From a virus, in IMG/VR virus record IMGVR_UViG_3300045988_034731: a DNA stretch of 41,670 nt. One strand, written 5' to 3'. Below the pieces are notes generated by a model. That model was not told the DNA's origin, made no database searches, and saw nothing but the letters and a program-made list of their open reading frames with translations. Positions 1 to 41,670 of the stretch are shown here, one piece after another. Made by a program: the position numbers and the translations under genes. The first letter of the stretch is position 1. Each line of letters starts with the position of its first letter.

Positions 1-112
1 AGAGCAATATCATAAGCGGAAACTTTTATGGCGTAGATTTTGGGGATAATTTGTGGGTCGCTGCTGGCAGCACCGGCATGTATTACAGCACCGACGGGAA
101 GAACTGGACCCA
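1..112. repeat. Terminal direct repeat, identical to 41559-41670 (circular-closure overlap)
   Basis: Read base by base: agagcaatatcataagcgg...gggaagaactggaccca is present at both ends. The final base (a) distinguishes it from the internal near-copy at 189-225, which reads ggacccc. Confidence 0.95.
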
Positions 113-563
113 GGGCAATGTCGCAAGCTCCTTTTCCGGAGTGGCATACGCAGACGATTTGTGGGTCGCAGGCTCAGACGATGGCACCGGCATGTATTAC
201 AGCACCGACGGGAAGAACTGGACCCCGAGCAATATCACAAGTGGACGTTACACGTACTTCCATAATTCGAACGGTTTGTGGGTTGTGGCGTCCAACAATG
301 GTAACGGCATTTACTACAGCACCGACGGGAAGAACTGGACCCCGAGCAATATCACAAGTGGACGTTACTCCCCTCCTGTTCGAGGGGGAGAATTGTGGGT
401 TGTTGGATCAAGAACAGCAGATGGACTCAAATACAGTGCCGATGGAAAGAGCTGGACCCAGAGCAGCAATATTGTAAACGGCCGCTTTATGATGGTAGCA
501 TTTGCAGACGATTTGTGGGTCGCGGCTCGCTTAGGCGACAAAGGTCTGTACTACAGCGAATAA
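1..563 (+). CDS. C-terminal end of the giant tail-fibre/receptor-binding protein (continuation of 36971..41670 across the junction); Asp-box/BNR-like repeat blades
   Basis: Open from nt 3 in the same phase as the 36971 ORF once the ends are joined; TAA at 561-563. Contains about 38-aa repeats with LWV(A/V)...YYSTDGKNWT (S-x-D-x-G-x-x-W Asp-box motif). Confidence 0.85.
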   Translation, partial: SNIISGNFYGVDFGDNLWVAAGSTGMYYSTDGKNWTQGNVASSFSGVAYADDLWVAGSDDGTGMYYSTDGKNWTPSNITSGRYTYFHNSNGLWVVASNNGNGIYYSTDGKNWTPSNITSGRYSPPVRGGELWVVGSRTADGLKYSADGKSWTQSSNIVNGRFMMVAFADDLWVAARLGDKGLYYSE

Positions 564-581: not shown

Positions 582-896
582 ATGGAGCCTTACAATGACG
601 CAGCGGTGGCAAAGATCGAGGAGCGGGTGGATGACCACGGACGCCGCCTGGATGTGGCGGAAAAACGCCTGGACGAGCAGGACAAGCGCCTGGACAGCAT
701 CGCTGACCTGACGGCCTCTGTGCGGGTGCTTGCCACTCGCCAGGGGACCGTGGAGACTGACGTGAAGGAGATCAAGACGGAAGTCAAGGCCATCAACGCC
801 CGTCCCGGCAAGCGCTGGGACGGCATGGTGGACAAGCTGCTGGCCGTGCTGGCCGGAGCCTTCCTCACCTGGCTTCTGACGGGAGGGAGTATATGA
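582..896 (+). CDS. xhlA: XhlA-like haemolysin/lysis accessory protein (coiled coil plus C-terminal TM)
   Basis: RBS gaaaggag 7 nt upstream. N-terminal coiled coil (RLDVAEKRLDEQDKRLD) and C-terminal TM (LLAVLAGAFLTWLL). Sits at the head of the holin/endolysin cassette, as in PBSX-type prophages. Confidence 0.7.
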   Translation: MEPYNDAAVAKIEERVDDHGRRLDVAEKRLDEQDKRLDSIADLTASVRVLATRQGTVETDVKEIKTEVKAINARPGKRWDGMVDKLLAVLAGAFLTWLLTGGSI

Positions 897-1075
897 AGAA
901 GCGGGACAAGTACCTGCTGGCGGCCATCGTCAACCTCACCTGGTACTGCCTGGCGGTGTTGGTGCTGAGCGCCCTGGAGCGCACGGTGCCGGACAGCCTG
1001 ACGGTAGCATGGTTTGGGGCCTGGACGGCGGAGCTGGGCCTGCTGGCAGGCATCAAGATCAAGGACAGGGACTAA
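893..1075 (+). CDS. Small two-TM membrane protein, holin-like
   Basis: ATGA overlap with the upstream stop; RBS gggagggag. 60 aa with two hydrophobic segments, located in the lysis cassette. Confidence 0.55.
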   Translation: MKKRDKYLLAAIVNLTWYCLAVLVLSALERTVPDSLTVAWFGAWTAELGLLAGIKIKDRD

Positions 1076-1111
1076 CGGACAGCTCCCACAGGGAGCGGAA
1101 AGGAGCACAAT

Positions 1112-1330
1112 ATGAGTGAGACCATCATCAAGCGGCTGGGGACCCTCCTCAGCGTCAAGAGCATCGTGACCATCGTACTGACCGCCGTCTTCGCCTACCT
1201 GGCCCTCACCGGCGGTATCAGTCAGGAGTTCATGCTGATCTACACCACCATCATCGCCTTTTACTTCGGCACTCAGACGCAGAAGCTCAGCGATGTGGTG
1301 GCCCAGGACAGCACGGGAGAGCGCCGATGA
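1112..1330 (+). CDS. Holin (small two-TM protein with charged C-terminus)
   Basis: RBS gaaaggag. 72 aa with two TM segments and a polar tail. Its stop overlaps the endolysin start (ATGA). Confidence 0.6.
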   Translation: MSETIIKRLGTLLSVKSIVTIVLTAVFAYLALTGGISQEFMLIYTTIIAFYFGTQTQKLSDVVAQDSTGERR

Positions 1331-1815
1331 CGGCCCTCTCCCCCAGGACCAGAGCGGCGGTCCTCCAGATCGCCGCCTGGCAGATCGGGGTACTGGAGAG
1401 CCCTGCGGGGAGCAATCGGGTCAAGTACAACACGGAGTACTATGGCCGGGAGGTCCGGGGAGCGGCGTACCCCTGGTGCATGGCCTTCGTCTGGTGGGTC
1501 TTCCGGGAGGCGGGTTTCCACCTCTTCAAGACGGCCAGTTGCTCGGCCTTCGTTGGCCAGTATAAGGCCAAGTCCCCCGGCCAGATCGTCCGGGCCAACT
1601 ACCGGCCCGGGGACATCGTGTTCTTCGATTTCAGCGGCAAAAAGGCCAAGACGGAGCACGTGGGCATCGTGGAGAGCGTGGCGGCGGATGGGCGCCTCAC
1701 CACCATCGAGGGCAACACCGGCATGGGTAACGACGCCAACGGCGGCGCGGTCATGCGGCGGACCAGGAAGCAGGGCCTCGTCACCTGCGGTGTAAGACCG
1801 GGGTATCCAGATTAA
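1327..1815 (+). CDS. CHAP-domain peptidoglycan hydrolase (endolysin)
   Basis: Catalytic-Cys context AAYPWCMAFVWWVF, His context EHVGIVE, then TIEGNTG. Typical CHAP layout, immediately downstream of the holins. Confidence 0.85.
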   Translation: MTALSPRTRAAVLQIAAWQIGVLESPAGSNRVKYNTEYYGREVRGAAYPWCMAFVWWVFREAGFHLFKTASCSAFVGQYKAKSPGQIVRANYRPGDIVFFDFSGKKAKTEHVGIVESVAADGRLTTIEGNTGMGNDANGGAVMRRTRKQGLVTCGVRPGYPD

Positions 1816-24597: not shown

Positions 24598-24632
24598 GAC
24601 GGTGAGCGGCTATCAAAACATATAACGACCTT

Positions 24633-27453: not shown

Positions 27454-27561
27454 GGTAACCCCCCACCAGAACGGGCGGAGGATTACCTCGGAAAAACGGA
27501 AACAAAGTTTCCTCACCAATATTATATGCGCACATTGCGGAATAGTCAAGAGGGTAAACAC

Positions 27562-27966: not shown

Positions 27967-28062
27967 GGACTTTATCAAAAAGGTAAAACCCGCGAGGTAC
28001 AGCGGTTTTTATACAATCTATCGCCGCGACGGACTGCGGACAAGGGAAAGGAAGATAGAACA

Positions 28063-28668: not shown

Positions 28669-28670
28669 TT

Positions 28671-29810: not shown

Positions 29811-29827
29811 GAATGGAGGGCGGCGTA

Positions 29828-30262
29828 ATGCTTGAAAACGTTTTGCAACACTTGAACAACTGGTTCCTTGTAGATGTCCACGAGGGCGAGTTTGTGGTGA
29901 GAAACGGCAGCATTACGCTGCCTTTTCTCCAAACCAACCAGTATTTCCGGATCGTCGGTTCCGTTTTCAACGATGGCTTGCACCAGTACCCGGTAGGGGA
30001 TTTGGTGGATGAGACGTTTACAGGCTCTATTTGGGCGCTTGCCGTTCCTGGGGCGGTGGTGTCACTTTCTGGCGAAATCGAGGAATGGCAGAAGAAAAAC
30101 GGAGCCATCGTCACAAGCCCATACACGTCGGAATCGTTTGGCGGGTATAGCTATACCAAAGCCAGCGGGGGGAAGGCGGATACCAGCGCTGTTACTGGCT
30201 GGCAGGACGCTTTCCGAGGCCGATTAAATTCCTGGCGGAAAATCAAGGGGGTGGAACCGTGA
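29828..30262 (+). CDS. Head-tail connector/adaptor protein (putative)
   Basis: ATG 29828 lies 7 nt after GGAGGG. Assigned by position after the capsid gene. Confidence 0.55.
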   Translation: MLENVLQHLNNWFLVDVHEGEFVVRNGSITLPFLQTNQYFRIVGSVFNDGLHQYPVGDLVDETFTGSIWALAVPGAVVSLSGEIEEWQKKNGAIVTSPYTSESFGGYSYTKASGGKADTSAVTGWQDAFRGRLNSWRKIKGVEP

Positions 30263-30618
30263 GTTTACTGGACGATTTTGCCCACAAGTGCATTTTGATG
30301 GAGAAAAAGCGCACGCCTGACGGCGCGGGCGGCTACATCACCGCATGGGAAGAGGGCGCGGAGTTCCTCAATTACCAGTCTCTTGACACATCTATGGAGG
30401 CGCGCAAGGCAGAAAAGGACGGTGTGACCTCGGTATATTCCGCGCTGGTCAATCAGAGCGTTCCCATCGAGTATAACGATTATTTCCGCGATACGGAAAC
30501 GGGGATTACCTATCGCGTGACCTCAAATCCCGAGGAAAAAAACGCACCGAGGTCTGCTGGCGCAATCATTAAGGCCCTGAAATTTTTCACCGCGGAGCGA
30601 AAGGAGCTGCCGAAATGA
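30259..30618 (+). CDS. Head closure / head-tail joining protein (putative)
   Basis: GTGA overlap with the upstream gene. About 119 aa, as is typical for this slot. Confidence 0.55.
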   Translation: MSLLDDFAHKCILMEKKRTPDGAGGYITAWEEGAEFLNYQSLDTSMEARKAEKDGVTSVYSALVNQSVPIEYNDYFRDTETGITYRVTSNPEEKNAPRSAGAIIKALKFFTAERKELPK

Positions 30619-30983
30619 CAAAGGACAAGGCGCTCCATGCGTGGTTTTCTCAATTCCTCCCGGCGTATCCGACCTCCAACGTGCCGAAGGACGCGACCTT
30701 CCCGTGGCTGACCTATGAGCTTATCACAGGATCATGGGAGAGCGGCGAGATCGCGCTGACGGTCAACCTCTGGGATTACACCGAGAGCGAGGCCGTACCG
30801 AACGCTAAGGCGCAGGAGATCTCCGACGCAATCGGCATGGGCGGCTGTATGGTCGCCTATGACGGCGGCGCTATGTGGATCAAGCGCGGGTCCCCGTGGT
30901 GTCAGAATATCGCGGACGAAAGCGATAAAAACATCAAGCGGCGGTATCTCAACATCACGGTTGAGTTCCTGTCGCAAAACTGA
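30615..30983 (+). CDS. Tail terminator / tail completion protein (putative)
   Basis: ATGA overlap. Last small gene before the major tail protein. Confidence 0.55.
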   Translation: MTKDKALHAWFSQFLPAYPTSNVPKDATFPWLTYELITGSWESGEIALTVNLWDYTESEAVPNAKAQEISDAIGMGGCMVAYDGGAMWIKRGSPWCQNIADESDKNIKRRYLNITVEFLSQN

Positions 30984-30998
30984 TGAAAGGACAACGAC

Positions 30999-31586
30999 AT
31001 GAAATTTACCAAGATTCCTTCTGATGCGTTTCAGAAGCTCCAGATTAACGCTGGTATCCTGACGACCGATTTCACACCGGCTACCGGCACCATCGGCGAG
31101 GCGGGGCAGATCGGCGCAACGACCGGCGGCGTCAACTTTACCGCCACGCCGACCTATTCGGACTTTGGCGAGGATATCGACAACTGCCCCAAGAACATGA
31201 AGGAGCTAAAAAAGCTCGATTCGTGGGAGGTCAAGATGACCGGCACGTTTGTCAATGCCGATACCGCCATTGCAAAGCGGCTGTGCGGCGCGGCTGACAT
31301 CGGGACGACCGACACGACCAAGGTCACGCCGCGCAACGACCTCAAGGACGCGGACTTTGATGATATCTGGCTCGTGGGCGATTACTCCGACAAGAACGGC
31401 GAAACCAACGGCGGCTTTATCGCGATCAAGCTGCTCAACGCGCTTTCCACGGGCGGCTTCCAGCTCAAGACGGCGGACAAGGCCAAGGGCCAGTTTGCGT
31501 TTGAGTTTACCGGGCACTACTCCATGAGCGCGCAGGACACCGTTCCCTTTGAAATTTACATCAAGGCCGGCACGGCGGAGGCGTAA
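30999..31586 (+). CDS. Major tail (tube) protein
   Basis: 195 aa, beta-rich, directly upstream of the G/G-T chaperone pair and the tape measure gene. Confidence 0.75.
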   Translation: MKFTKIPSDAFQKLQINAGILTTDFTPATGTIGEAGQIGATTGGVNFTATPTYSDFGEDIDNCPKNMKELKKLDSWEVKMTGTFVNADTAIAKRLCGAADIGTTDTTKVTPRNDLKDADFDDIWLVGDYSDKNGETNGGFIAIKLLNALSTGGFQLKTADKAKGQFAFEFTGHYSMSAQDTVPFEIYIKAGTAEA

Positions 31587-31955
31587 ATGAAACTTTCCGA
31601 TCTTAGTACCGAAAAAGCGGCTGATGTGTTGTGTGAAATCAGCGTTTATACTCTGTCGATTCTCGGAGATGAGAAACTTCGTGAATCGCTGAGAAATGGA
31701 ATCGACAAAACGGGCGCTGAAACATTTGCAGAAAAGTATGCATTTGCAACTGAGAAGATTACCGCTCTGCTCCCTGTGCTTTTGAAAACGCATCGAAATG
31801 ATCTTTTTGGCATTATCGCTGCTGTAAATAGCATTTCTGCCGATGTAGTGGCGAAGCAAAATGTCATGGTTACGCTTAACCAGTTCAAGGAAATCATGAG
31901 AGACGAGGAAATGATCTCTTTTTTCAGGTCGTGCGCGCGGGAGAATGGCAAGTAA
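31587..31955 (+). CDS. Tail assembly chaperone (gpG analogue)
   Basis: Lies between the major tail protein and the tape measure gene. Contains the slippery heptamer near its 3' end. Confidence 0.75.
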   Translation: MKLSDLSTEKAADVLCEISVYTLSILGDEKLRESLRNGIDKTGAETFAEKYAFATEKITALLPVLLKTHRNDLFGIIAAVNSISADVVAKQNVMVTLNQFKEIMRDEEMISFFRSCARENGK

Positions 31956-32239
31956 CGGCGGCACTCTTGCGCGTGCCTAAACTACACGCGCGCGCATTGA
32001 TAAAACTTTTGCCGAGGCTAATTGCCGAGCAACAAAAAGATGCCGCATACCGCATCTATGTGACCGACGCGCTGCGCATTGTGGCCGAAAACACGGCACA
32101 ATACGTGGGCGGGAACTATATCAAGGCGCGATACGCGGACATGATTGAGCCGAAAAAGCAGGACAACCGGACGTGCGAAGAAATCACCGCCGATATTGTC
32201 GCGCGGTGCGGATTGGAGGTGAAACATGAATCTACTTGA
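31587..32239 (+). CDS. G-T fusion tail assembly chaperone produced by -1 frameshifting at 31919-31925
   Basis: Track ORF 31931..32239 is in the -1 frame relative to 31587..31955. It has no RBS of its own and ends just inside the tape measure gene. Confidence 0.6.
31919..31925 (+). promoter_or_regulatory. -1 programmed frameshift slippery heptamer T_TTT_TTC
   Basis: In the zero frame it reads tc-t ttt ttc (S F F). The -1 frame reads FFQVVRAGEWQ... and stays open to 32239. Confidence 0.7.
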
Positions 32240-33731
32240 TTTATTTGTCAAGATCAGCGTAGACGACGGAGACGTAGACAAGGGCTTTTCAGAAACGAGC
32301 AGCAAAGCAGAAACGCTTGCAGGGAAACTGAAAGGCGGGCTTGCTACGGCGGCTAAGGTCGGCGGCGCTGCGATTGCGGCGGCTGGCGCGGCTGCGGTTG
32401 CCATTACAAAACAGGCCGTAGAAAATTACGGCGAATATGAGCAGCTGGTCGGTGGCGTGGAAACGCTTTTTAAATCCTCTGCCGATACCGTGATGCAGTA
32501 CGCACAGAACGCATACCAGACGGCGGGCATGAGCGCGAACGAGTACATGACCACCGTGACGGCGTTTTCCGCGTCGCTGCTGCAATCGATGGGCGGCGAC
32601 ACGGACGCGGCAGCGGAAAAGGCGAATCTGGCCATTACCGACATGAGCGACAACGCGAACAAGATGGGTTCCAGCATGGAATCTATCCAGAATGCGTATT
32701 CCGGTTTCGCCAAGCAAAACTATACCATGCTCGATAACCTCAAGCTCGGCTATGGCGGCACGAAGGAGGAAATGCAGCGGCTTTTGGACGATGCGAACGC
32801 CTTAAACGCCGCGCAAGGCAATTACACCGACTACACCATCGACAGCTACGCGGACATCGTTGACGCTATCCATACCGTGCAGACGGAAATGGGCATCACG
32901 GGAACAACGCAGCTGGAAGCCAGCACGACGATCCAAGGATCTATCGCGTCGATGAAAGCGGCGTATGACAACTTTATCACGGGACTTGGCGATGAAAACG
33001 CCGACATGGCGGAACTCATTACAAACCTTTTGGGCAGCACCGTGACGGTGGCGGAAAATCTCTTGCCGGTCGTTGAGAGAATCCTTGAAAACATCGGCGT
33101 TGTGGTGCAGGAAAAAGGCCCTGAAATGATTGAGAAATTTGTCGGCTATGCCGTCGAAAAACTGCCGCAGGTCATTGAGCTGGGCATGAAGATGGTGTTG
33201 GCGATCGTCAGCGGCCTTGCCAAAAATTTTCCGCAGATCGTTCGGTCGGTGCTTGACATGATGGCGACCATTGTAAAGACCTTCGTTTCCTCGCTCCCCA
33301 ATATCGTAAATGTCGGCAAACAGATCGTGAAGGGCTTGTGGGAAGGCATCAAGGCAATGGGCAGCTGGATCAAGGAAAAAGTCGGCAGCTTTTTCTCCGG
33401 AATTGTTTCAGGCGTAAAGAGCAAGCTTGGGATTCATTCCCCGTCTCGAGTATTTGCAGGGATCGGCGAGAATATGGCGCTGGGCCTTGGCGAGGGCTGG
33501 GAGAACGAATACGGCGACATCAAGCGGAATATTACGAGCAACCTCGACTTTGGGACGGCAAGCATCGGCACGGAACGGTCTGTTTTTGGGAAATTGCAGG
33601 GCGCAATCTCTTCTTTCGGAGGCATGGGCGGCGATATCAACATCGTTGTGCAGTCTGTGCTTGACGGGAAGGTGATCGGCGAGACGGCTTATAAATACAA
33701 CCGCCAAATGCAGCGGGCGATGGGGGTGTGA
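32226..33731 (+). CDS. Tape measure protein
   Basis: 501 aa, Ala/Gly-rich helical with TM-like segments (GGAAIAAAGAAAVAI). Canonical position. Confidence 0.85.
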   Translation: MNLLDLFVKISVDDGDVDKGFSETSSKAETLAGKLKGGLATAAKVGGAAIAAAGAAAVAITKQAVENYGEYEQLVGGVETLFKSSADTVMQYAQNAYQTAGMSANEYMTTVTAFSASLLQSMGGDTDAAAEKANLAITDMSDNANKMGSSMESIQNAYSGFAKQNYTMLDNLKLGYGGTKEEMQRLLDDANALNAAQGNYTDYTIDSYADIVDAIHTVQTEMGITGTTQLEASTTIQGSIASMKAAYDNFITGLGDENADMAELITNLLGSTVTVAENLLPVVERILENIGVVVQEKGPEMIEKFVGYAVEKLPQVIELGMKMVLAIVSGLAKNFPQIVRSVLDMMATIVKTFVSSLPNIVNVGKQIVKGLWEGIKAMGSWIKEKVGSFFSGIVSGVKSKLGIHSPSRVFAGIGENMALGLGEGWENEYGDIKRNITSNLDFGTASIGTERSVFGKLQGAISSFGGMGGDINIVVQSVLDGKVIGETAYKYNRQMQRAMGV

Positions 33732-34099
33732 GCATGAATGTGACTTTCCAAATTGGCTCGCTTGATTTAAGCAAGCGCCTTTCTACCTATGCGGTGCAGA
33801 TGGAAGTTTCCTATGGCAGAGTGCTGAAAACGATGGATGGGGTGGAACACGCAGTGCGGAGCCCGGACCGGGCCATTGTTTCCACGAGTTTTTTCCCCAT
33901 GACGGACGCAGAGGCGGAGGCGCTGTATGGCGCATTAAACAGCAGCGCCGTCACCGTGAAATTCAGCAATCCGTATACAAAGTCCGTAGAAACCCGAACT
34001 ATGCGGGTGGTAAGTAACCTGGACGCCGCTTTTGCGCTGAAATCCATAGACGGTAACGTGCGCTATAAAGGCGGCACGATCCAACTGAGGGCAAGATAA
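33728..34099 (+). CDS. Small tail/baseplate component
   Basis: GTGA overlap after the tape measure gene. 123 aa, beta-rich. Confidence 0.55.
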   Translation: MSMNVTFQIGSLDLSKRLSTYAVQMEVSYGRVLKTMDGVEHAVRSPDRAIVSTSFFPMTDAEAEALYGALNSSAVTVKFSNPYTKSVETRTMRVVSNLDAAFALKSIDGNVRYKGGTIQLRAR

Positions 34100-34788
34100 T
34101 GCAAACGACTAGCGCATTATGGAAAACACTCCTACAGGATAAAACGCACTGGAAAGAGCAAAAAATCAGCATTGGCCAGACGGAATACGATAAAGAGAAA
34201 ATCGTAAGCCTCTCCGTTTCGGCAGCGCTGTTCGGGGGACGGGTAGCAACCGTCGGGAGCTGTGTTTCTGCTCAATTAAGCCTTGTTTTGTGGAATCCTG
34301 GCAGCATTCCAAGGAATGCGGAGGTAAAAGCGTATACGCGATTGAGCAACGGGACGCAATCCTCGGAATGGCTGCAAGTCGGCGTTTTTTACATCGATAC
34401 CAGGGATATTGATCCCGATGCAAATACCATTACCCTATCTTGCTATGACGCCATGCTCAAAGCGGAGCAGACGTTTTTAATGGAAGGCGATACAGGCGAG
34501 TGGCCTAGGACGCAGCAAGCGGTTGTAAACGCCATTTGCACCCGCATGGGGGTGGAGCTGGATAGCCGGACGGTTATCAACTCCACCTACATGGTGGAGT
34601 ACCCCAACGACTATACCATGCGGGAGATTTTGGGCTATATCGCCGCCGCTCACGGCGGCTGCTGGATCATCACACCGGCGGGCAAGCTGCGGCTGGTGAC
34701 CCTGGGCGGCCTCCCGGCAGAAACAAATTACCTCGTGGATGAGTACGGCAACACAATCACGATGGGAGGGGTGAGAATCCTTGTCTGA
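34099..34788 (+). CDS. Distal-tail/baseplate protein (putative)
   Basis: TAATG overlap. 229 aa, in the Dit/Tal slot. Confidence 0.6.
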   Translation: MQTTSALWKTLLQDKTHWKEQKISIGQTEYDKEKIVSLSVSAALFGGRVATVGSCVSAQLSLVLWNPGSIPRNAEVKAYTRLSNGTQSSEWLQVGVFYIDTRDIDPDANTITLSCYDAMLKAEQTFLMEGDTGEWPRTQQAVVNAICTRMGVELDSRTVINSTYMVEYPNDYTMREILGYIAAAHGGCWIITPAGKLRLVTLGGLPAETNYLVDEYGNTITMGGVRILV

Positions 34789-36154
34789 CAAACTCTACTT
34801 GGGGCGGCAGATCACGGATTTTTCTGCCCCTCCCAAATTTTCTCCCTATAGCCGGGTAACGATCTGGTACGACGACGAGAACGCCTACACCGCCGGAGAC
34901 GATACCGGGCGGACGCTGGAGGTGGACTGCCCCTGGGCCACCCAGGCGATGGCCAACAACCTCCTGGCCGCCGTCTCCGGCTACGCATACCAGCCGTTTT
35001 CCGCTTCTGGCGCCATCCTGGACCCTGCGGCGGAGCTGGGCGATGCCATTACCGTCAACGGCATCTACAGCCTCCTGGCGACCATCGACACCACGGCGGA
35101 CGCCCTGGACAGCGCTGATATCGGCGCTCCCGGGGAGGAGGAAGTGGATCACGAGTACCCGTACCTCTCCCCGCAGGACCGGGCGCTGAAACGCAAGGTA
35201 GCTTTGGGGGCCCTGTACTACGGAACCCGGATCACCCGAAACAAAGGCTTGGAAATCGTGAAAACGGACGGGGAGACGGAGAAAGCCCGTGTGATCCTCA
35301 ACGCCGACACCCTGGCCTTCTACAACGACGATGGCGACGAGGCCCTGTACTTCGACGCCGCAGCGGGCAAGTACAAATTCCGGGGCATCATCAACGTCAA
35401 CGACAAGTTCCTAGTGGACAAGGACGGCAACGTTACCCTGGGCGGCAACGTGGTATTTACTGGCGAAAGCAGCTTTACCCTGGTCAAGTACTCCACGGAC
35501 AAGGAGACCTGGGTGGACGAGTGGGACGAGGCCTGGGAAAACACCAGCACGGAGGTGTGGGCCAAGTACAGCTACAACGCCGGGACCACCTGGACCTCCC
35601 CTATCCTGGTCCAAGCGAAAAACGGTGAGCAGGGGCCTGCCGGGTCCTCCGCCAGCGTTACCTTCGCCAACATCAAGGCCGCTCTGATGCGGGCCGCTTC
35701 CACGGAGGATACCTTCATCACGGCGGACGAGTTCGGAAGCCCCAACATTTACGGCGGCAAAATCTACGGCGCTGAGATCTACGCAGGCAGCGGGGACAGC
35801 GACGAAGGCTACGCCGCCATGACGGCCAACGGCTTCGACGTGGTTTCCTCCGGAGATTTGCACAAGATCGGCCTGGGCTTGGAAACCATCGGAAGCATCG
35901 ATTACCCGTATCTCATTCTGGGCGCAGGGTCCGGCGATACAGGCTCGGACAACGGGGTCGTGAAGAAATTTACCACGGGTATCTGGATCGGGGACAGCAG
36001 CGCCATCGGCGTGGCGAATTCCAGCCAGATCACCGGAACGGGGATTTTTATTTCCTTCGGCTCGAACACCATCTACCAGGTGAAAAACGGGGCGATGTCC
36101 GAAATTGGTTCCGGCAGCGGCGGCGAAGTCACCGTCCGGGCCGTATGGGGGTGA
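34781..36154 (+). CDS. Tail-associated structural protein (Tal-like slot)
   Basis: TTG start overlapping the upstream end. 457 aa, beta-rich with Gly-rich loops. Confidence 0.65.
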   Translation: MSDKLYLGRQITDFSAPPKFSPYSRVTIWYDDENAYTAGDDTGRTLEVDCPWATQAMANNLLAAVSGYAYQPFSASGAILDPAAELGDAITVNGIYSLLATIDTTADALDSADIGAPGEEEVDHEYPYLSPQDRALKRKVALGALYYGTRITRNKGLEIVKTDGETEKARVILNADTLAFYNDDGDEALYFDAAAGKYKFRGIINVNDKFLVDKDGNVTLGGNVVFTGESSFTLVKYSTDKETWVDEWDEAWENTSTEVWAKYSYNAGTTWTSPILVQAKNGEQGPAGSSASVTFANIKAALMRAASTEDTFITADEFGSPNIYGGKIYGAEIYAGSGDSDEGYAAMTANGFDVVSSGDLHKIGLGLETIGSIDYPYLILGAGSGDTGSDNGVVKKFTTGIWIGDSSAIGVANSSQITGTGIFISFGSNTIYQVKNGAMSEIGSGSGGEVTVRAVWG

Positions 36155-36160
36155 TCGGAA

Positions 36161-36802
36161 GTGGCTACAAGCGTATTCCCCGGCAGCTGGGAGTGTGATT
36201 ACACCAACACCACCATCACGGCGAGAGTTACTGATCCGGATGAATACTCCTATTTCTCCTGGTCCCTCCGGACTGCGGATGGTAACACAACCCTGCAATC
36301 CCGTGGGTACTCTCTCGCGCGGACGGTATCGTTTGGCGGCCTAACTCCTGCAACAACGTATCGCGTCTATATGTCTTGGTCACACTCGACAACTGGCGAA
36401 GGCAATTACGATTACGAGTACGTCACGACGCAGGCAGTGGAGCCTCAACCGGAGCGCCCTGCCAACTGGGAATGGACATCTACCGTGGCGGCAAATGCAG
36501 AAGTCCCGCTCACCTTGGAAGCAGATGGGACGTATCTTGCCAAATACCTCACGGCAGCGGAGTGGGACGGATTTATTGCCCGCTGCATCGAATTTGCACA
36601 GTATCTGGGGATGTCCGTCTCCGGCTCTCAGATCAGCACCACTCCTGGCACCAACATGGAGGCCAGCGACGTGAATGCTGTGATCGATCTCTTGACCACC
36701 ATGGATCCCCCCACGTCGCCTCCAGCCAAGGTTGCCGCCGGAGATGTGATCTCGGCGGCGACCATCAATGGGCTGAAAAACAGCCTCAACAGCATCACCT
36801 AG
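36161..36802 (+). CDS. Structural protein with an N-terminal fibronectin-type-III-like domain
   Basis: GTG start. VSFGGLTPATTYRVYMSW is an FN3-like strand motif. Confidence 0.6.
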   Translation: MATSVFPGSWECDYTNTTITARVTDPDEYSYFSWSLRTADGNTTLQSRGYSLARTVSFGGLTPATTYRVYMSWSHSTTGEGNYDYEYVTTQAVEPQPERPANWEWTSTVAANAEVPLTLEADGTYLAKYLTAAEWDGFIARCIEFAQYLGMSVSGSQISTTPGTNMEASDVNAVIDLLTTMDPPTSPPAKVAAGDVISAATINGLKNSLNSIT

Positions 36803-36816
36803 AAAGGAGAAATCCC

Positions 36817-36978
36817 ATGGATAAATCGAAGATCATCCGCATGGCGGCTGGTATCCGGGACGCCGCGCGGCACGTCACCGTAGCGGGCGAGGAGAACTGG
36901 ACGAACATGCTGGGCATCGTGCAGACGGCGGAGGCCATCATTGCGGAGGCCAGGAAGGAGGAGACTGCCAATGGCTGA
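36817..36978 (+). CDS. Small helical protein (53 aa) preceding the fibre gene
   Basis: ATG 36817 after aaaggaga. Overlaps the fibre start by 8 nt. Confidence 0.5.
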   Translation: MDKSKIIRMAAGIRDAARHVTVAGEENWTNMLGIVQTAEAIIAEARKEETANG

Positions 36979-39900
36979 CAAGAGCATCAACGATCTCCCG
37001 GCGGTAGAATCTCTGGCCGACGATGGCCTCCTGCCGGTATACCAGGACGGCGGGGCCAAGCGCCTCACGGGCGCCCAGCTCTCCCAGTACGCCGGGGATG
37101 CCGCTGTAGACGCCGTAACGGAGCAGGCCGAGGAGATTACCAAGGCGGCGACCAAGACGGCCACGGAAGCGGCCACGGCGGCAGCTTCCTCCGCTTCGGC
37201 TGCGGCCGGAAGCGCCGCAACGGCGAAGGCCAACGCCGACGCCGTGGACCCGGACGCCATCAACAGCCGGATCGCGGCGAAGGCGGACAACCTGTACTTT
37301 GACGAGGACACCAAGCTCCTCTACCTCACCTCCGGCGGGGAGATCATCGGGGACGGCATCAAGGTCTCCGTGGGAGGCTCCGGCGGCGGGGGCGGCAGCG
37401 ACAACAACGCCGTACTCACCCTCAGCAACACCACGGGATGGATTTTTAAGTCAATCGCAATGGGCGCGGCCTGCCCTCTCAGCGTCTCCTGGAGCTCTCT
37501 GGAGGACGGCCTGGCTACCGGGGGCGGCGTCCTCAAAGTCACCGTAAATGGGGCTCAGAAGCTCACGCAGCAGGTGGCGCAGGGCGCTGTGACGGTGGAT
37601 GTGGGCTCGTATCTCTCCCCCGGCACCAACGCCGTCAAGGTCAACATCAGCGACGTGTACGGCAACAGCCGGACCCTCTCCTTCTCCATCACGGCGGTGG
37701 CGCTCTCCCTCAGCTCCTCCTTCGACGCTTCGGTGCCCTACACCGGGGCCATCGCCTATCCGTACACCCCCACCGGCACGGCGACCAAGGTCATGCACTT
37801 CAAGCTGGACGGTGTGGAGCTGGAGACGGTGACGGTGACGGCATCCGGGCGGCAGCAGACTTACACCATCCCGGCGCAGACTCACGGAAGCCACAGCCTG
37901 GAGGTGTGGTTCACGGCCACGGTGGACGGCGAGAGCGTCAGCTCCAACGTCCTGCGCTACGACCTTATCTGCACGGTGGAGGGCACCACCACTCCCATCA
38001 TCGCCTCCGCCTGGCAGCAGGCCACGGCGGAGCAGTACAGCACCCTGTCCATCCCCTACATCGTGTACAATCCCTCCGGCCTCACGGCGGAGATCACCCT
38101 CAAGGTGGGAAGCACCGTCCTCAAGACCCTGACGGTGGACCGGACGGAGCAGGTGTGGAGCTATCGGGCGGACGAGGTGGGGGCTCTGAGCCTGTCCATC
38201 GTCTGCGGCAGCGTCACCAAGACCTTTACCACCACCGTGACGGAGAGCACCGTCAACGTGGAGGCGGAGACGGCGGACTTGGCCCTGCACCTCACCGCCT
38301 CCGGGCGGAGTAACACGGAGGCCAACAAGTCCAGCTGGAGCTACGGCAGCATCGCCGCAAGCCTCACGGGCTTCAACTGGACTTCCGACGGCTGGACGAC
38401 CGACGCCGACGGCATCACGGCCTTGCGGGTGGCGGGCGACGCCCGTGTGACCATTCCCCTGCAGATCTTCGCCCAGGACTTCCGGACCACCGGCAAGACC
38501 ATCGAGCTGGAGTTTGCCACCCGGGATGTCATGGACTACGACGCCACCGTGATCTCCTGTCTCTCCGGAGGCCGGGGCATCAAGGTGACGGCGCAGAAAG
38601 CATCCCTGACCTCTGAGCAGAGCGAGGTCTCCACCCAGTACAAGGAGGACGAGCACGTCCGCCTGGCCTTCGTGGTGGAAAAACGTGCGGAAAACCGTCT
38701 GATCCTGGTCTACATCAACGGCATCCTCTCCGGCGCGGTGCAGTACCCCGCGGACGATGACTTCTCCCAGAGCAGCCCCGTGGGCATCTCCATCGGCTCC
38801 AACTCCTGCACCACGGACATCTACGGCATCCGGGTCTACAACAACAGCCTCACCCGCTACCAGGTCCTCAACAACTGGATCGCGGACAGCCAGGCCATCG
38901 ACGATCTCCTGGCCCGATATCAGCGCAACAAGGTCTATGATGACTACGGCCAGATCGTGATCGATGACCTTCCCCAGGACCTCCCGTACCTCATCCTGGA
39001 GGGGCCGGAGCTACCCCAGTACAAAGGCGACAAGAAGACCGTCTCCGGCAGCTTCGTGGACCCCACGGACAGCTCCCGGAACTTCACGTTTACCGGGGCC
39101 AGCATCAACGTGCAGGGCACCAGCTCCCAGTATTACGCCCGGAAGAATTACAAAGTCACCTTCAAGGGCGGCTTTGTGGTGGACGGCGTGACGGCGGCCA
39201 AGTACGCCCTGCGGCCCGGCGCTATCCCCGTTGACACCTTCACCTTCAAGGCAGACGTAGCAAGCTCTGAGGGGGCCAACAACGTGGAGCTGGTACGGCT
39301 CTACAACGACGCCTGCCCCTACCAGACGCCGCCCCAGGAGGCCAACAGCGCCGTCCGGCAGGGCATCGACGGCTTCCCCATGGTGATCTTCTGGCGGCAC
39401 GGCGACGAGACCACCTTCCTGGGCAAGTACAACTTCAACAACGACAAGGGCACCCCGGAGGTCTACGGCTTCGCCGAAGGGGACGAGAGCTGGGAAATCC
39501 TCAACAACACCAGCGACCGGGTTTTGTGGAAAAGCGCCGACTTCACGGGCGACTGGACCGGCGACTTCGAGGGCCGCTACCCGGACGGCAACACAGACAC
39601 CACGAAGCTGGCCGCTCTCGCCGCCTGGCTTGTGAGCACAGATCAGAGCGCCGTGACCAGCGACGCCGACAAGGCCGCCCGCCTGGCGAAGTTCAAATCG
39701 GAGCTTCCGGACCACCTGGAGCTACAGAGCGCCCTCTTCTACTACCTCTTTACGGAGCTCTTCCTGATGGTGGACAGCCGGGCGAAGAACGCCTTCCCGT
39801 CCCACCTGGGGCCGGACAAGTGGTGCTGGCTCCCCTATGACTTCGATACCGCCATCGGCACCAACAACGAGGGCGCCCTGGTCTTCGGTTATGCCCTGGA

Positions 39901-41670
39901 GGACATTGACCAGGTGGGCACGGCGGACGTCTTCAACGGCCAGAACTCGGTCATGTGGGTCAACCTCCGGCAGGCATACGGAGCGGAGATCGCCGCCATG
40001 TACCAGTCTCTCCGTTCCACCGGGAAGCTCTCCTACGCTCTCGTGGAAGAGATGTTTGAGACCCATCAGGCCAAGTGGCCGGAGGCCATTTTCAACGAGG
40101 ACGCCTACTTCAAGTATTTGCAGCCCCTCATCGAGGACGGCACCTCCGCCTACCTCTCCATGCTCCAAGGCAGCAAGGCGGAGCAGCGTAAGTGGTGGCT
40201 CTACAACCGCTTCCGCTATCTGGACGCTAAGTACAACGCCGGGGACGCCCTGACGGACACCATTACCCTGCGTGGCTACGCCAAAGACAATATCTCCGTG
40301 ACGCCCTACGCCGACATCTACGCCTCCATCAAGTACGGCTCCTACCTCGTCCAGAAGCGGGCCCTGCGGGGCAGCAGTTACGTGCTGGAGTGCCCCCTGG
40401 ATAACGTCAACGACACGGAAATCTACGTGTACAGCGCCTCCCAGCTCAAGGCCATTGGCGACCTCAGCGGCCTGAAGGTGGGCTACGCCGAGTTCAGCCT
40501 GGCGACCCGGCTCCAGAGTCTCAAGCTGGGCGACAGCGCCGAGAGCTACAGCAACCCCAACCTGACGGAGCTGTACCTGGGCAACAACCGCCTCCTCACC
40601 ACCCTGGACGTGCGCAACTGCCCCAACCTCACCATGGCGGTGGATGTCTCCGGCTGCACCGGCCTGGAACACGCCTACTTTGACGGCACCGCCATCACCG
40701 GCCTGACCCTCCCCAACGGCGGCGTCCTCAAAACGCTGCACCTGCCCGCCACCGTCACCAACCTCACCGTCCGCAACCAGGGCGGCATCACGGACTTCTC
40801 TATGCCTGCCTATTCGGCCATCACCACCCTGCGGGTGGAGAACTCCCCCGCCATCCCGGCCAAGGACATTCTCTCCGCCATGGCGGCCAACAGCCGTGTC
40901 CGGCTCCTGGGCGTCAGCTGGAGCTTTGACACGGCGGCGGACATCCTCTCCCTGCTGGATACCCTGGACACCATGCGGGGCCTGGACGAGCAGGGCAACA
41001 ACGTGGATAAGGCCCAGGTCAGCGGCACGGTCTCCACCACCAACATCACCGGGGCCCAGTTGGCGGACATCCACAGCCGCCACCCCGACCTCACGGTGGT
41101 GTATCAGCACATCACCTCGCAGCTCAAGTTCTACAACGGCACTACGCTCCTCCAGACCGTGGACGTGGTAGACGGCGGCGACGGGGCCTATACCGGCAGC
41201 ACACCCACCAAAGCCAGCACGGCCCAGTACAGCTACACCTTCGCCGGTTGGTCCCTGACGGACGGCGGCCCGGTGGATGCCAACGCCACCAAGGCCGTGA
41301 CAGCGGACCGGAACGTCTACGCCGCCTTTACCGCAACCGTGCGGACCTACACCGTGCGCTTCTACAACGGTTCCACCCTCCTCCAGACGTCCACCAACAT
41401 CCCCTACGGCGGCAGCGCCAGCTATACCGGGACCGCACCCACCAAGGAAGGGGACTACGAGTTCACGGGATGGAGTCCCAGCCCCAGCAACATCACGGGA
41501 GATACCAACTGCTATGCGCAGTTCCGGTTTACGGGGTTGCCGGGGATTGCGTGGACCCAGAGCAATATCATAAGCGGAAACTTTTATGGCGTAGATTTTG
41601 GGGATAATTTGTGGGTCGCTGCTGGCAGCACCGGCATGTATTACAGCACCGACGGGAAGAACTGGACCCA
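36971..41670 (+). CDS. Giant multidomain tail-fibre/receptor-binding protein, running off the window end and continuing at 1..563 (1,716 aa in total). Domain order: LamG-like, CotH kinase-like, LRR-like, two Listeria-Bacteroides repeats, Asp-box blades.
   Basis: I translated frame 2 from ATG 36971 to 41670 codon by codon and found no stop. Approximate domain positions: LamG-like about 38270-38880, CotH-like about 38950-40240, LRR-like about 40440-40900, Flg_new-type repeats about 41110-41535, blades from about 41540. Confidence 0.9.
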   Translation, partial: MADKSINDLPAVESLADDGLLPVYQDGGAKRLTGAQLSQYAGDAAVDAVTEQAEEITKAATKTATEAATAAASSASAAAGSAATAKANADAVDPDAINSRIAAKADNLYFDEDTKLLYLTSGGEIIGDGIKVSVGGSGGGGGSDNNAVLTLSNTTGWIFKSIAMGAACPLSVSWSSLEDGLATGGGVLKVTVNGAQKLTQQVAQGAVTVDVGSYLSPGTNAVKVNISDVYGNSRTLSFSITAVALSLSSSFDASVPYTGAIAYPYTPTGTATKVMHFKLDGVELETVTVTASGRQQTYTIPAQTHGSHSLEVWFTATVDGESVSSNVLRYDLICTVEGTTTPIIASAWQQATAEQYSTLSIPYIVYNPSGLTAEITLKVGSTVLKTLTVDRTEQVWSYRADEVGALSLSIVCGSVTKTFTTTVTESTVNVEAETADLALHLTASGRSNTEANKSSWSYGSIAASLTGFNWTSDGWTTDADGITALRVAGDARVTIPLQIFAQDFRTTGKTIELEFATRDVMDYDATVISCLSGGRGIKVTAQKASLTSEQSEVSTQYKEDEHVRLAFVVEKRAENRLILVYINGILSGAVQYPADDDFSQSSPVGISIGSNSCTTDIYGIRVYNNSLTRYQVLNNWIADSQAIDDLLARYQRNKVYDDYGQIVIDDLPQDLPYLILEGPELPQYKGDKKTVSGSFVDPTDSSRNFTFTGASINVQGTSSQYYARKNYKVTFKGGFVVDGVTAAKYALRPGAIPVDTFTFKADVASSEGANNVELVRLYNDACPYQTPPQEANSAVRQGIDGFPMVIFWRHGDETTFLGKYNFNNDKGTPEVYGFAEGDESWEILNNTSDRVLWKSADFTGDWTGDFEGRYPDGNTDTTKLAALAAWLVSTDQSAVTSDADKAARLAKFKSELPDHLELQSALFYYLFTELFLMVDSRAKNAFPSHLGPDKWCWLPYDFDTAIGTNNEGALVFGYALEDIDQVGTADVFNGQNSVMWVNLRQAYGAEIAAMYQSLRSTGKLSYALVEEMFETHQAKWPEAIFNEDAYFKYLQPLIEDGTSAYLSMLQGSKAEQRKWWLYNRFRYLDAKYNAGDALTDTITLRGYAKDNISVTPYADIYASIKYGSYLVQKRALRGSSYVLECPLDNVNDTEIYVYSASQLKAIGDLSGLKVGYAEFSLATRLQSLKLGDSAESYSNPNLTELYLGNNRLLTTLDVRNCPNLTMAVDVSGCTGLEHAYFDGTAITGLTLPNGGVLKTLHLPATVTNLTVRNQGGITDFSMPAYSAITTLRVENSPAIPAKDILSAMAANSRVRLLGVSWSFDTAADILSLLDTLDTMRGLDEQGNNVDKAQVSGTVSTTNITGAQLADIHSRHPDLTVVYQHITSQLKFYNGTTLLQTVDVVDGGDGAYTGSTPTKASTAQYSYTFAGWSLTDGGPVDANATKAVTADRNVYAAFTATVRTYTVRFYNGSTLLQTSTNIPYGGSASYTGTAPTKEGDYEFTGWSPSPSNITGDTNCYAQFRFTGLPGIAWTQSNIISGNFYGVDFGDNLWVAAGSTGMYYSTDGKNWT
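41559..41670. repeat. Terminal direct repeat, identical to 1-112
   Basis: Same evidence as for 1-112. Confidence 0.95.

Follow-up and report, generated by a model that had tools for sequence, protein, structure and literature searches.

Giant phage proteins of ~2000 aa that combine a CotH domain with Laminin_G_3 were described in 2017/18 (PMC5758913), and 'category f1' of Wu et al. (2018) corresponds to the Hankyphage-type DGR variable proteins. A CotH-like kinase also occurs in the viral DGR-target cluster PC_00012 (Roux et al. 2020; bioRxiv 10.1101/2020.04.01.020958), phage CotH kinases were called 'currently unstudied' by Benler et al. (2021; PMC8008677), and giant proteins with LamG, CotH and LRR were listed as Hankyphage-type DGR targets ('domain group 3') by Macadangdang et al. 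(2024). Phage proteins named 'CotH kinase family protein' are already present in RefSeq and UniProt. The Hankyphage homologue is a DGR target and has been termed tail fiber. Two large proteins encoded just 5' of the DGR cassette were detected in PEG-precipitated Hankyphage particles, and the preparation used for mass spectrometry also held non-structural proteins; gene order and size, rather than accession, suggest that the 'Minor tail protein' (15 peptides, >250 kDa fraction) is the homologue.

Here we report a gene of this type from the virus record IMGVR_UViG_3300045988_034731, of which a window of 41,670 nt (the whole stretch of DNA that was analysed) was available. The gene very probably lies in the tail-fibre slot and encodes a genuine CotH fold whose catalytic residues are intact, and our main reading is that it encodes a tail fibre whose CotH domain is a catalytically competent phosphotransferase (probability roughly 0.55). 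The first-pass annotation implied that such a protein was new; the same architecture has been reported since 2017 (Wu 2018; Roux 2020; Benler 2021; Macadangdang 2024). Its narrower statement stands, as kinase activity has not been demonstrated for any phage fibre in the literature searched, which yielded no functional study or biochemical data on phage CotH.

The gene crosses the ends of the window and was located as follows:

36971..41670, plus strand: giant tail-fibre gene, first 1566 codons, running past the window end
1..563, plus strand: 3' end of the fibre gene after the wrap-around, encoding Asp-box beta-propeller blades

The frame-1 translation of 36971-41670 is open for all 1566 codons, contains every peptide quoted in the first-pass annotation and agrees with its coordinates for the catalytic motifs (DSRAKN, aa 935-940, nt 39773-39790; YDFD, aa 956-959, nt 39836-39847). 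The gene end that had been placed at 41670 is an artefact of the window cut, because the gene goes on at window 1-563, where the codons begin at nt 3 and the stop codon occupies 561-563. On the source contig (L006) the fibre gene was called at 12873-17927. Window positions 1-119 are identical (100%) to the end of this contig, which gives a circle of 41,906 bp; the window covers this circle except for 236 nt, which are absent between window 41670 and window 1, and the genome is essentially complete. When window 1-563 is joined across the gap, the full fibre comprises ~1832 aa. The PHROGs matched by the ORF (14959/24896/9915) carry no functional annotation.

The gene order is TerL, portal, MCP, MTP, TMP, Dit-like, 457 aa, 213 aa, 53 aa, fibre and lysis genes, with the following features next to the fibre:

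32226-33731: tape measure gene, upstream of the distal tail genes
34099..36802, plus strand: distal tail genes, with PHROG tail protein matches
34099-34788, plus strand: Dit-like gene
34781-36154, plus strand: gene of the 457-aa protein
36161-36802, plus strand: gene of the 213-aa protein
36817..36978, plus strand: 53-aa gene directly 5' of the fibre (gene call on L006-L009), with an 8-nt overlap with the fibre start
36971..37084, plus strand: N-terminal fibre segment of ~38 aa, a putative baseplate-docking anchor, shared with an alternative fibre
582..1815, plus strand: lysis cassette directly 3' of the fibre
582-896, plus strand: XhlA/hemolysin-like gene (phrog_937, 1e-10)
1327-1815, plus strand: endolysin gene (phrog_21357, 5.5e-29)

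This location in the structural operon, past the tape measure and distal tail genes, is that of a tail fibre. Sibling phages (L007-L009) have an identical Dit, and their upstream genes (457, 213 and 53 aa) match in length and position, the 53-aa gene doing so whichever fibre comes next. Their fibre slot is occupied by a 312-aa collagen-repeat protein, with which the fibre N-terminus shares 36 of 54 residues, identity being near-complete over about the first 38 aa. The sibling comparison thus shows the conserved attachment segment and exchangeable distal part of a tail fibre; an analogue of the N-terminal segment is the anchoring domain of T5 pb1 (residues 1-40; PMC12750041). The fibre identity is also supported by two other phages: Lacticaseibacillus phage R3.3 has a fusion of CotH to the baseplate domain BppU_N, and in a P2-like Klebsiella phage CotH fills the fibre slot, with baseplate genes on one side and tail-collar genes on the other.

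These observations leave little room for a protein outside the virion, such as a giant adhesin of the prophage, surface-located or secreted, or a kinase that manipulates the host, with expression from the late region; we consider such a protein very improbable. Manipulation of host signalling was proposed for DGR-target relatives by Roux et al. (bioRxiv 10.1101/2020.04.01.020958), the Hankyphage particle preparation was impure, and incorporation of the present fibre into virions is suggested by synteny; its tail-fibre context is well supported though indirect. Such a protein is at odds with the position of the gene exactly between distal tail genes and lysis cassette, with the anchor common to the collagen-like fibre, with the two CotH proteins of R3.3 and the P2-like phage, and with an N-terminus that has no apparent signal peptide or transmembrane segment in the translation as read by eye.

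The phage is best explained as siphovirus-type with gut Clostridia as hosts, and its fibre as modular. The fibre cassette has its closest relatives in genomes of Oscillibacter and Dysosmobacter, matches to bacterial loci at the nucleotide level are limited to 37198-41410, and GC3 of the fibre gene is 0.886 as compared with 0.63-0.82 in adjoining genes. The LamG-CotH(-LRR) block is best explained as a conserved cassette, mobile among gut phages that are unrelated to each other and infect Gram-positive as well as Gram-negative bacteria.

The fibre is a non-DGR member of the known Hankyphage-type LamG+CotH+LRR giant proteins. It is homologous to the Hankyphage protein (Bacteroides phage p00, BK010646, 2245 aa) over aa 200-1377 (27% identity, E 1e-102), with the same LamG - CotH - LRR order, the same catalytic columns and the same location after tape measure, hub and minor tail genes. 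The two differ in host lineage (Clostridia here, Bacteroides for Hankyphage) and in the tip: Hankyphage, like some other lineages, has here a C-type lectin that is diversified by a DGR and carries a variable repeat, whereas the present protein ends at window 563 with an Asp-box beta-propeller and had no Pfam match to CLec, FGE-sulfatase or DUF1566. Unlike Hankyphage, the genome has no reverse transcriptase (RT): tblastn with the Hankyphage RT found nothing in the window or on the source contig at E <= 1, and with the same query 14 of 80 related loci proved to contain an RT. Close relatives of the fibre (68-74% identity) do have a downstream DGR RT, as in Hankyphage. The lack of both an RT in the near-complete genome and a C-type-lectin variable tip speaks against a DGR variable protein in the present case. 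A 1673-aa hypothetical protein of NatCom_3357 (PV036416.1, Ca. Heliusvirales) is 62.6% identical over 91% of the window ORF and, like the fibre, precedes holin and endolysin; it gives CotH, LRR and Flg_new signals and has no annotated RT nearby, but differs in its BspA-type LRR_5 tip (53.9 bits) and in a tail module with a longer tape measure.

The fibre is predicted to begin at its N-terminus with a short peptide for docking to the baseplate, followed by an Ala-rich segment, beta-rich domains, a lectin of the ConA/LamG type and an atypical kinase of the CotH type; an LRR-like solenoid and a pair of Flg_new repeats then lead to the exchangeable C-terminal tip, an Asp-box beta-propeller:

37361..38275, plus strand: beta-rich region (aa ~131-435), possibly Ig-like or CBM-like, weak matches only
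38279..38839, plus strand: ConA-like/LamG-type lectin jelly-roll (aa ~437-623), from AF2, Foldseek and Hankyphage homology
38987..40252, plus strand: CotH-type atypical kinase domain (aa ~673-1094), from Pfam, AF2 and Foldseek
39113..39148, plus strand: invariant QGTSSxxYxxKN block of the N-lobe (aa 715-726)
39248..39256, plus strand: K760-A-D762, closing a beta-strand of the N-lobe, with a candidate nucleotide-binding Lys
39773..39790, plus strand: catalytic loop D935-S-R-A-K-N940, aligned with D224-GFVH-N229 of 5JD9 chain A
39836..39847, plus strand: Y956-D957-F-D959, DFG-equivalent metal-binding motif, aligned with W-D247-Y-D249 of 5JD9
40448..40960, plus strand: LRR-like solenoid (aa ~1160-1330), sub-threshold
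41174..41482, plus strand: two Flg_new (Listeria-Bacteroides) beta-repeats (aa ~1402-1504), sub-threshold
41531..41670, plus strand: start of the Asp-box beta-propeller tip, which resumes past the 236-nt gap

The CotH-like block recognised in the first-pass annotation was confirmed by two of the checks proposed there. The Pfam search matched CotH (PF08757) with 26.1 bits for the whole ORF and 30.1 bits for the fragment, above the gathering score of 23.8; the direct match spans only positions ~149-242 of the 322 in the profile, which form the catalytic core. This marginal match is backed by relatives that cover the full model, such as P0079 (44% identical; 51.2 bits, profile 1-320), and by the AF2 model of aa 640-1120 (pLDDT 83.5, pTM 0.83), for which Foldseek ranked the B. 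cereus CotH kinase (5JD9/5JDA) first among PDB structures (E 3.8e-11, probability 1.00, TM 0.71-0.72 normalised to the target) and the next matches, PI3K and HipA, were ~10^7-fold weaker. The match is not due to chance, at a sequence identity of only ~11% to the solved CotH. Spore CotH (B. subtilis; B. cereus 5JD9/5JDA) and the fibre domain have the fold, the Pfam family, the D-x4-N motif and the metal-binding Asp in common. The former is a stand-alone coat protein of ~360 aa, whereas the latter is part of a multidomain predicted virion protein of ~1832 aa; the phage clade has additional invariant motifs (QGTSS, K-A-D, NFNxDK), and the spore substrates CotB and CotG are absent here.

The order proposed in the first-pass annotation, with CotH between the lectin and LRR-like repeats in a protein of the tail-fibre slot, was recovered, and its individual modules fared differently. 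The LamG-type lectin had no direct Laminin_G_3 match in the fibre and was substantiated by an all-beta AF2 model (pLDDT 93.1) with a ConA-like jelly-roll, whose top Foldseek matches (E 1e-10) were to botulinum and tetanus toxins, in their lectin-like HCN subdomains, and by 31% identity (E 2e-41) to a segment of the Hankyphage protein with a Laminin_G_3 score of 36.2 bits. LRR-like repeats are plausible: relatives match LRR_4, LRR_8 and LRR_EndoS and pass LRR models, and the sole, weak PDB match of the family profile in this stretch is an LRR protein, but LRR_4 reaches only 13.5-18.7 bits at aa 1196-1229 of the fibre itself (gathering score 27). The same holds for the Flg_new repeats, whose motifs YTFAGWS and YEFTGWSP are present but score below the Pfam cutoffs (Flg_new 23.1 bits in two stretches, GA 27, E 8e-5; Flg_new_2 17.3 bits vs 23.6). 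The Asp-box blades are evident from their repeat period: the end of the window holds one complete box (YSTDGKNWT), and the source contig and window 3-563 add at least 8 further blades (repeats of the form ...MYYSTDGKNWT... up to the stop codon), with the pattern YS(T/A)DGK(N/S)WT, a period of 38-40 aa and the ending S-x-D-G-K-x-W-T. Pfam BNR had no match in the fibre, and DUF6242 scored 28.9 bits (GA 29). Among relatives, median identity is 8% in the propeller tip and 46% in the beta-rich region, where CBM_56 and CE2_N matched with E > 0.1.

The assignment of D-x4-N and YDFD as catalytic and metal-binding elements, made in the first-pass annotation, agrees with the alignment to B. cereus CotH, in which D935, N940 and D957 pair with D224, N229 and D247; the substitutions of catalytic positions that would have indicated a pseudokinase were not seen. 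The catalytic loop was aligned with 5JD9 via a phage R3.3 bridge and by direct profile alignment, and the two agreed. B. cereus D224 was equated with B. subtilis D228 through the identical spacing of 23 residues to the second Asp (D224 to D247, D228 to D251), as compared with 22 residues in the fibre (D935 to D957). D228Q and D251A are the catalytic-dead mutants of B. subtilis CotH; the fibre thus has the catalytic-loop Asp with an Asn five residues on, and D957 of YDFD in place of the metal-binding D251. Kinase catalytic loops come after helix alpha-E, and the loop of the AF2 model comes after helix 279-291.

D935 is kept in 254 of 256 homologues and in 78/78 genome loci, N940 in 257/257 and 79/79, and D957 and D959 in 187 of 188 homologues and 79/79 loci, these 77-79 independent loci coming from Clostridia, Bacteroidales, Coriobacteriia and Chryseobacterium. 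In the N-lobe, Q715, G716, S718, S719, K725 and N726 are invariant in alignment A2 and in 77/77 loci, and K760 (K121 of the fragment), which closes model strand E117-121, is kept in 244 of 245 homologues and 77/77 loci. The N-lobe sequence alignment to 5JD9, which has a negative score and is unreliable, weakly places the QGTSS block against the 'YRGAHIREFEKKSY' region and an Asn of B. cereus CotH opposite K760. CotH is the most constrained segment of the fibre, with 87 of 410 columns invariant and a median identity of 64% as compared with 8-13% at the two termini.

Pseudokinases usually lose the catalytic D, N and D residues. In the fibre family these are 99-100% invariant across Clostridia, Bacteroidales and Chryseobacterium, which is not expected from a host-specific ligand and makes it rather unlikely that CotH is a binding module or pseudoenzyme, i.e. 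a second adhesin beside lectin and tip that retains its pocket and acidic residues for a ligand, e.g. a surface polymer whose phosphate is bridged by a metal, or a protein of the host. Such a role would suit the flanking binding modules (ConA/LamG lectin, LRR, Flg_new), the absence of an ATP source outside the cell, and the clade-specific invariant QGTSS, K760 and NFNxDK, which were not seen in B. cereus CotH in the weak alignment. A precedent is given by the Mucorales invasins CotH3 and CotH7, which are reported to be surface-exposed adhesins with a CotH-family domain that bind GRP78 on the target cell (PMC6561750); these are eukaryotic and GPI-anchored, and their binding is attributed to a peptide motif. 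The first-pass annotation placed the domain in a receptor-binding protein; a part of CotH in this function is doubtful, because the domain belongs to the conserved body and not to the variable tip. Since the CotH block is a conserved mobile cassette whereas the tip varies and is DGR-diversified in some lineages, host specificity probably resides in the tip and perhaps the lectin, not in CotH.

For the preferred catalytically competent domain, we infer a Mg-nucleotide-dependent phosphotransferase rather than a dead scaffold. An active kinase displayed on the virion, with virion proteins as substrates during assembly or host surface glycans or proteins reached through the lectin at adsorption, is a tentative proposal. 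Of these, we prefer, equally tentatively, assembly within the cell: CotH would work inside the infected cell late in infection, where ATP is available, on the fibre itself or on other virion or envelope components, on the model of B. subtilis CotH, which phosphorylates structural coat proteins so that they can assemble. As a second choice, it would act on glycans or proteins of the cell surface during adsorption. Given the scarcity of ATP outside cells, a kinase on the virion would have no obvious cosubstrate at that stage; to our knowledge, the fibre enzymes described so far need none.

The same supply problem weighs on an enzyme that acts at the cell surface during adsorption and modifies or cleaves the receptor polymer in the manner of tailspike depolymerases and deacetylases, which we regard as unlikely. 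Its chemistry might be glycan or protein phosphorylation with an extracellular or virion-bound nucleotide, or a non-kinase reaction on a kinase fold, such as AMPylation or the transfer or cleavage of phosphodiesters in teichoic acids or capsules. Tail fibres with enzymatic activity are common, and kinase-fold enzymes phosphorylate sugars (FAM20B, POMK, WaaP) or perform other chemistry (SelO, SidJ). The intact, invariant catalytic residues and the adjoining lectin, which could position a glycan substrate, would fit such an enzyme; however, a single cassette serves phages of Gram-positive and Gram-negative hosts with differing surface polymers, and only kinase-type residues were seen, with nothing pointing to other chemistry.

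If an active kinase is indeed displayed on the virion, the protein would be the first phage tail fibre with a described enzymatic activity that depends on nucleotides. This would also provide a function for a cassette that occurs in Hankyphage and, across gut phages, in >2,600 protein clusters (the CotH domain matched 2618 cluster representatives at E <= 1e-3). Phosphorylation of virion proteins would then be a phage analogue of CotH-driven spore-coat patterning.

Other phage CotH proteins include R3.3 WBM89858 (BppU_N + CotH), the P2-like Klebsiella gp13 ('CotH kinase family protein'), Bacillus phage G gp353 and crAss-like 'spore coat protein-like' proteins, which, like the fibre, carry CotH in tail or baseplate proteins. 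They are 21-29% identical and have other partner domains, and the LamG-LRR cassette was not detected in any of these four groups. D296, K300, N301, D318 and D320 (fragment numbering) are invariant in an alignment in which the domains of R3.3, the Klebsiella phage and phage G are represented.

An open reading frame of 1566 codons runs on the plus strand from position 36971 to the end of the window and encodes a giant protein with all the genomic hallmarks of a tail fibre; its conserved body includes a domain with the CotH fold, in which the tested catalytic residues are intact and under strong purifying selection. All peptides quoted in the first-pass annotation, which had placed a CotH kinase domain between a LamG domain and LRR-like repeats of a tail fibre, were present in this frame, and their coordinates were correct. 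Judged by their PHROGs matches, the genes upstream constitute a siphovirus-type structural operon.

Features of the fibre gene and the upstream operon (amino acids are numbered from 36971)
23365, large terminase (PHROGs)
24633, portal (PHROGs)
upstream operon, head morphogenesis protein (PHROGs)
28671, major head protein (PHROGs)
30999, major tail protein (PHROGs)
32226-33731, tape measure (PHROGs)
34099, Dit-like tail protein (PHROGs)
34781, further tail-associated protein (PHROGs)
36161-36802, 213-aa gene (gene calls on four contigs)
36817-36978, 53-aa gene (gene calls on four contigs); its stop overlaps the fibre start codon by 8 nt
39773-39790, plus strand, motif DSRAKN (aa 935-940)
39836-39847, plus strand, motif YDFD (aa 956-959)

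A mechanically defined frame of 200 aa (36376-36978) is probably no gene, and the called 213-aa and 53-aa genes were preferred. The tape measure is short (501 aa vs. 1059 aa in NatCom_3357, a phage with a related fibre), which implies a short tail; the two phages show one fibre cassette mounted on quite different tails.

The Pfam model CotH (PF08757; gathering score 23.8) matched the entire frame with 26.1 bits and the isolated CotH block with 30.1 bits, but the match spans only the catalytic core (model positions ~150-240 of 322) and is weak if taken alone. An AlphaFold2 model of the block (aa 640-1120) was confident (pLDDT 83.5, pTM 0.83), and its best matches in the PDB were the B. cereus CotH kinase structures 5JD9 and 5JDA (E 3.8e-11, probability 1.00; TM 0.71-0.72, normalised to CotH), followed by PI3K and HipA kinases (E ~1e-3). 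The block has 752 word-indexed homologues, some with precomputed PF08757 assignments and one with the NCBI name 'CotH kinase family protein', and an exhaustive search recovered 2618 cluster representatives (E <= 1e-3; clusters at 50% identity), mostly proteins of 1500-2900 aa. A relative that is 44% identical to the CotH domain (P0079) matched the whole CotH model (positions 1-320) with 51 bits. A viral structure library contained at least 20 phage proteins with the CotH fold, several of them named 'CotH kinase protein' or 'Spore coat protein H kinase fold'. The homologues with their full-model relative, the fold match to 5JD9 and 5JDA, and the folds in the viral library together make the CotH identity firm. 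A chance Pfam match, conceivable in view of the marginal score and partial coverage, was ruled out by the fold search and the full-length matches in relatives.

Sequence searches of PDB chains did not reach CotH with the domain itself, with profiles of the two family alignments around it (A1, A2), or with the domains of a Klebsiella phage and phage G. The domain of Lacticaseibacillus phage R3.3 was the sole query that did (E 0.25), and was used as a bridge. NCBIfam gave no CotH name for the fibre protein or its relatives. Several crAss-like phages (cr272_1, cr273_1, cr52_1, cr107_1, crAss002) encode proteins with a sequence match to the N-lobe alone (fragment residues 39-195) or the C-lobe alone (264-478), which are annotated as 'internalin-like', 'transferase' or 'spore coat protein-like'; some of them align across the whole CotH domain in Foldseek.

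In B. subtilis CotH, the substitutions D228Q and D251A are each inactivating (PMC7821199). The B. cereus chain in the R3.3 alignment reads ...FTQNF-D224-GFVH-N229-YALYHNDETNLFEVIPW-D247-Y-D249-ATWGRD, and since the 23 residues from D224 to D247 equal the spacing from D228 to D251 in B. subtilis, D224 was taken as the catalytic-loop Asp and D247 as the DFG-equivalent Asp. The bridge alignment was verified by local profile alignment of the B. cereus fragment to the A1 and A2 HMMs, where D224, N229 and D247 fall under the v-D-s-R-a-K-N and Y-D-x-D columns, which identifies D935, N940 and D957 as their equivalents in the fibre. Alignment of the N-lobe to 5JD9 was unreliable. In the predicted structure, the D-x4-N loop comes after a helix (fragment residues 279-291) and is separated from Y-D-x-D by two short strands, an order that agrees with a kinase C-lobe.

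Among 264 retrieved homologues, conservation was extreme at D935 (254/256), K939 (255/256), N940 (257/257), and D957 and D959 (187/188 each), and the same columns were 100% conserved in 77-79 independent loci from species-representative genomes. They were also invariant in an alignment with the domains of Hankyphage (Bacteroides phage p00), Bacillus phage G, the Klebsiella P2-like phage and the Lacticaseibacillus phage, which are 21-30% identical. With D935, N940 and D957 intact and no substituted catalytic position in the alignment, the catalytic motifs recognised in the first-pass annotation held; by these alignments, the family as a whole shows next to no variation at the catalytic Asp, Asn and Asp, a residue-level demonstration that is new here. 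This conservation speaks against a rival reading in which the domain serves in binding only, as do the fungal CotH invasins. We infer instead that the fibre CotH is a competent Mg-nucleotide phosphotransferase.

The domains that flank CotH in the first-pass annotation were recovered to different degrees. The region aa 437-623, which lacks a direct Pfam match, was assigned to the ConA/LamG-type lectins on the basis of its predicted structure (pLDDT 93.1), which matches the lectin-like HCN subdomains of clostridial neurotoxins (E 1e-10), and of its 31% identity (E 2e-41) to a Hankyphage segment that passes Laminin_G_3 with 36.2 bits; the proposed lectin beside CotH was thus borne out. LRR repeats at aa ~1196-1229 and Flg_new repeats at aa ~1402-1504 scored below threshold but are plausible, with support from relatives. 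The proposed Asp-box blades belong to a propeller that starts at the end of the window (41531-41670; last residues YSTDGKNWT) and continues at the other end of the sequence. Positions 1-119 of the window match the final 119 nt of the source contig (L006) exactly, and the offsets imply a contig of 41,961 bp with a 55-nt terminal overlap, i.e., a circle of 41,906 bp. The window is therefore a circularly permuted, nearly complete genome, with 236 nt missing between positions 41670 and 1. Positions 3-563 continue the frame with five further Asp-box blades and a stop, so that the full fibre protein comprises ~1832 aa (36971-41670, the gap, and 3-563); an XhlA-like gene and then an endolysin follow. 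The coding region of the propeller contains exact repeats of 119 nt with a period of 348 nt (L006 17461-17579 = L006 17809-17927 = window 1-119). The blade count could therefore be mis-assembled through collapse of repeats in the short-read assembly, which might also have affected the circular junction.

When the Dit-like protein was looked up, it led to the source contig and to three sibling phages whose Dit protein is identical and which also have the 457-aa, 213-aa and 53-aa genes at the same lengths and positions. In the siblings, the slot that corresponds to position 36971 onward (L007 12873-16742; L008 3806-8209; L009 7655-11524) has the same start coordinate and is filled by a collagen-repeat protein of 312 aa plus six or seven small ORFs, after which come holin and endolysin. 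The CotH giant shares only its first ~38 residues with this collagen-like protein (36/54 identical overall). Fibres are expected to keep the attachment peptide conserved and to exchange the distal part, as seen here, and the anchoring domain of T5 pb1 (residues 1-40; PMC12750041) is a comparable case. In other phages, CotH shares a protein with the baseplate domain BppU_N (Lacticaseibacillus phage R3.3) or stands in the fibre slot under the RefSeq name 'CotH kinase family protein' (P2-like Klebsiella phage). The Hankyphage homologue (aa 200-1377, 27% identity, E 1e-102) is a 2245-aa target of a diversity-generating system (DGR), located after tape measure, hub and minor tail genes, and Vendrell-Fernandez et al. 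refer to it as the tail fiber. Hankyphage particle preparations contained both large proteins encoded at this place, along with non-structural proteins; gene order and gel fraction suggest an assignment of the DGR target to one of the two entries. Synteny, the shared N-terminus and the other phages thus provide indirect but consistent support for the CotH giant as a tail fibre, and a non-virion role is the weakest of the rival explanations.

The R3.3 protein (WBM89858, L005 2036-5191; 1051 aa, annotated as 'hypothetical') combines BppU_N (57.5 bits) with a C-terminal CotH (79 bits) and represents a compact CotH baseplate protein from a cultured phage. The product of gp13 in Klebsiella phage ST437-OXA245phi4.1 (L003 2128-4077) has a full-length CotH (70.8 bits, profile positions 2-322) and is encoded between baseplate genes and the tail collar fibre protein.

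In an alignment of 22 full-length relatives, the LamG-CotH core had a median identity of 61-72%, with 87 of 410 CotH columns invariant, as against 13% for the N-terminal anchor and 8% for the C-terminal tip. The tips of the relatives are BspA-type LRR_5, DUF6273, DUF285 or other propellers. A DGR reverse transcriptase lies just downstream in 14 of 80 genome loci, 3-4.5 kb from the CotH domain (L012, L014, L017, L025, L026, L028, L029, L049-L051, L054, L068, L072, L073), including relatives 68-74% identical to the fibre protein; within the clade, versions diversified by a DGR are interspersed with DGR-free ones. No DGR reverse transcriptase was found in the present genome, a result that is meaningful because the genome is essentially complete; together with a C-terminus that is not a lectin, it led us to reject the fibre as a DGR target.

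At the nucleotide level, the window resembles bacterial genome loci only at positions 37198-41410. The fibre gene (36971-41670) has a G + C content of 63.7% and an unusually high GC3 (0.886), as against 54.7% G + C in the rest of the structural module (23365-36970) and only 51% in its own propeller tail (1-563). The distinct composition and the limits of similarity suggest that at least three origins are combined in a mosaic. Loci with the cassette come from Clostridia, Bacteroidales, Coriobacteriia, Chryseobacterium and one Succinivibrionaceae MAG. Core conservation, swapped tips, host spread, the confined nucleotide similarity and the composition identify LamG-CotH(-LRR) as a mobile, conserved payload with specificity at the tips, and CotH action must be largely independent of the type of host envelope. 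This host spread speaks against a rival role at the cell surface during adsorption, by phosphorylation of glycans or proteins or by other chemistry. [quoted passage not shown]

The first-pass annotation had implied that CotH on a fibre is novel, but the architecture has been reported repeatedly: as ~2000-aa phage DGR targets with CotH and Laminin_G_3 as main motifs (Wu et al. 2018; PMC5758913), as viral cluster PC_00012 with a CotH-like kinase (Roux et al. 2020; bioRxiv 10.1101/2020.04.01.020958), as phage CotH kinases of which 'these proteins are currently unstudied' (Benler et al. 2021; PMC8008677), and as LamG with CotH (Macadangdang et al. 2024). In view of these reports, the present fibre is a DGR-free case, from a Clostridia phage, of a known but uncharacterised architecture; we found no functional study of a phage fibre CotH kinase in the literature, where a search for tail fibres with kinase domains gave unrelated papers only, and the question of its role is real, if not first uncovered here. 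New are the complete-genome, DGR-free example from a Clostridia phage and the recognition of LamG-CotH as a conserved payload with swapped tips. Giant fibres with CotH are very common in gut phages (2618 clusters, at least 207 species-level genomes), and Hankyphage occurs in about a third of whole-community metagenomes, according to its source paper. If active, the kinase would represent a new class of virion-associated enzyme. The invariant residues, the payload pattern and the DGR-free genome make the question experimentally approachable, as do cultured strains with CotH-domain homologues of 67-75% identity in their genomes, namely Dysosmobacter sp. HCP28S3_G4, Zongyangia hominis NSJ-54 and Hespellia stercorisuis DSM 15480.
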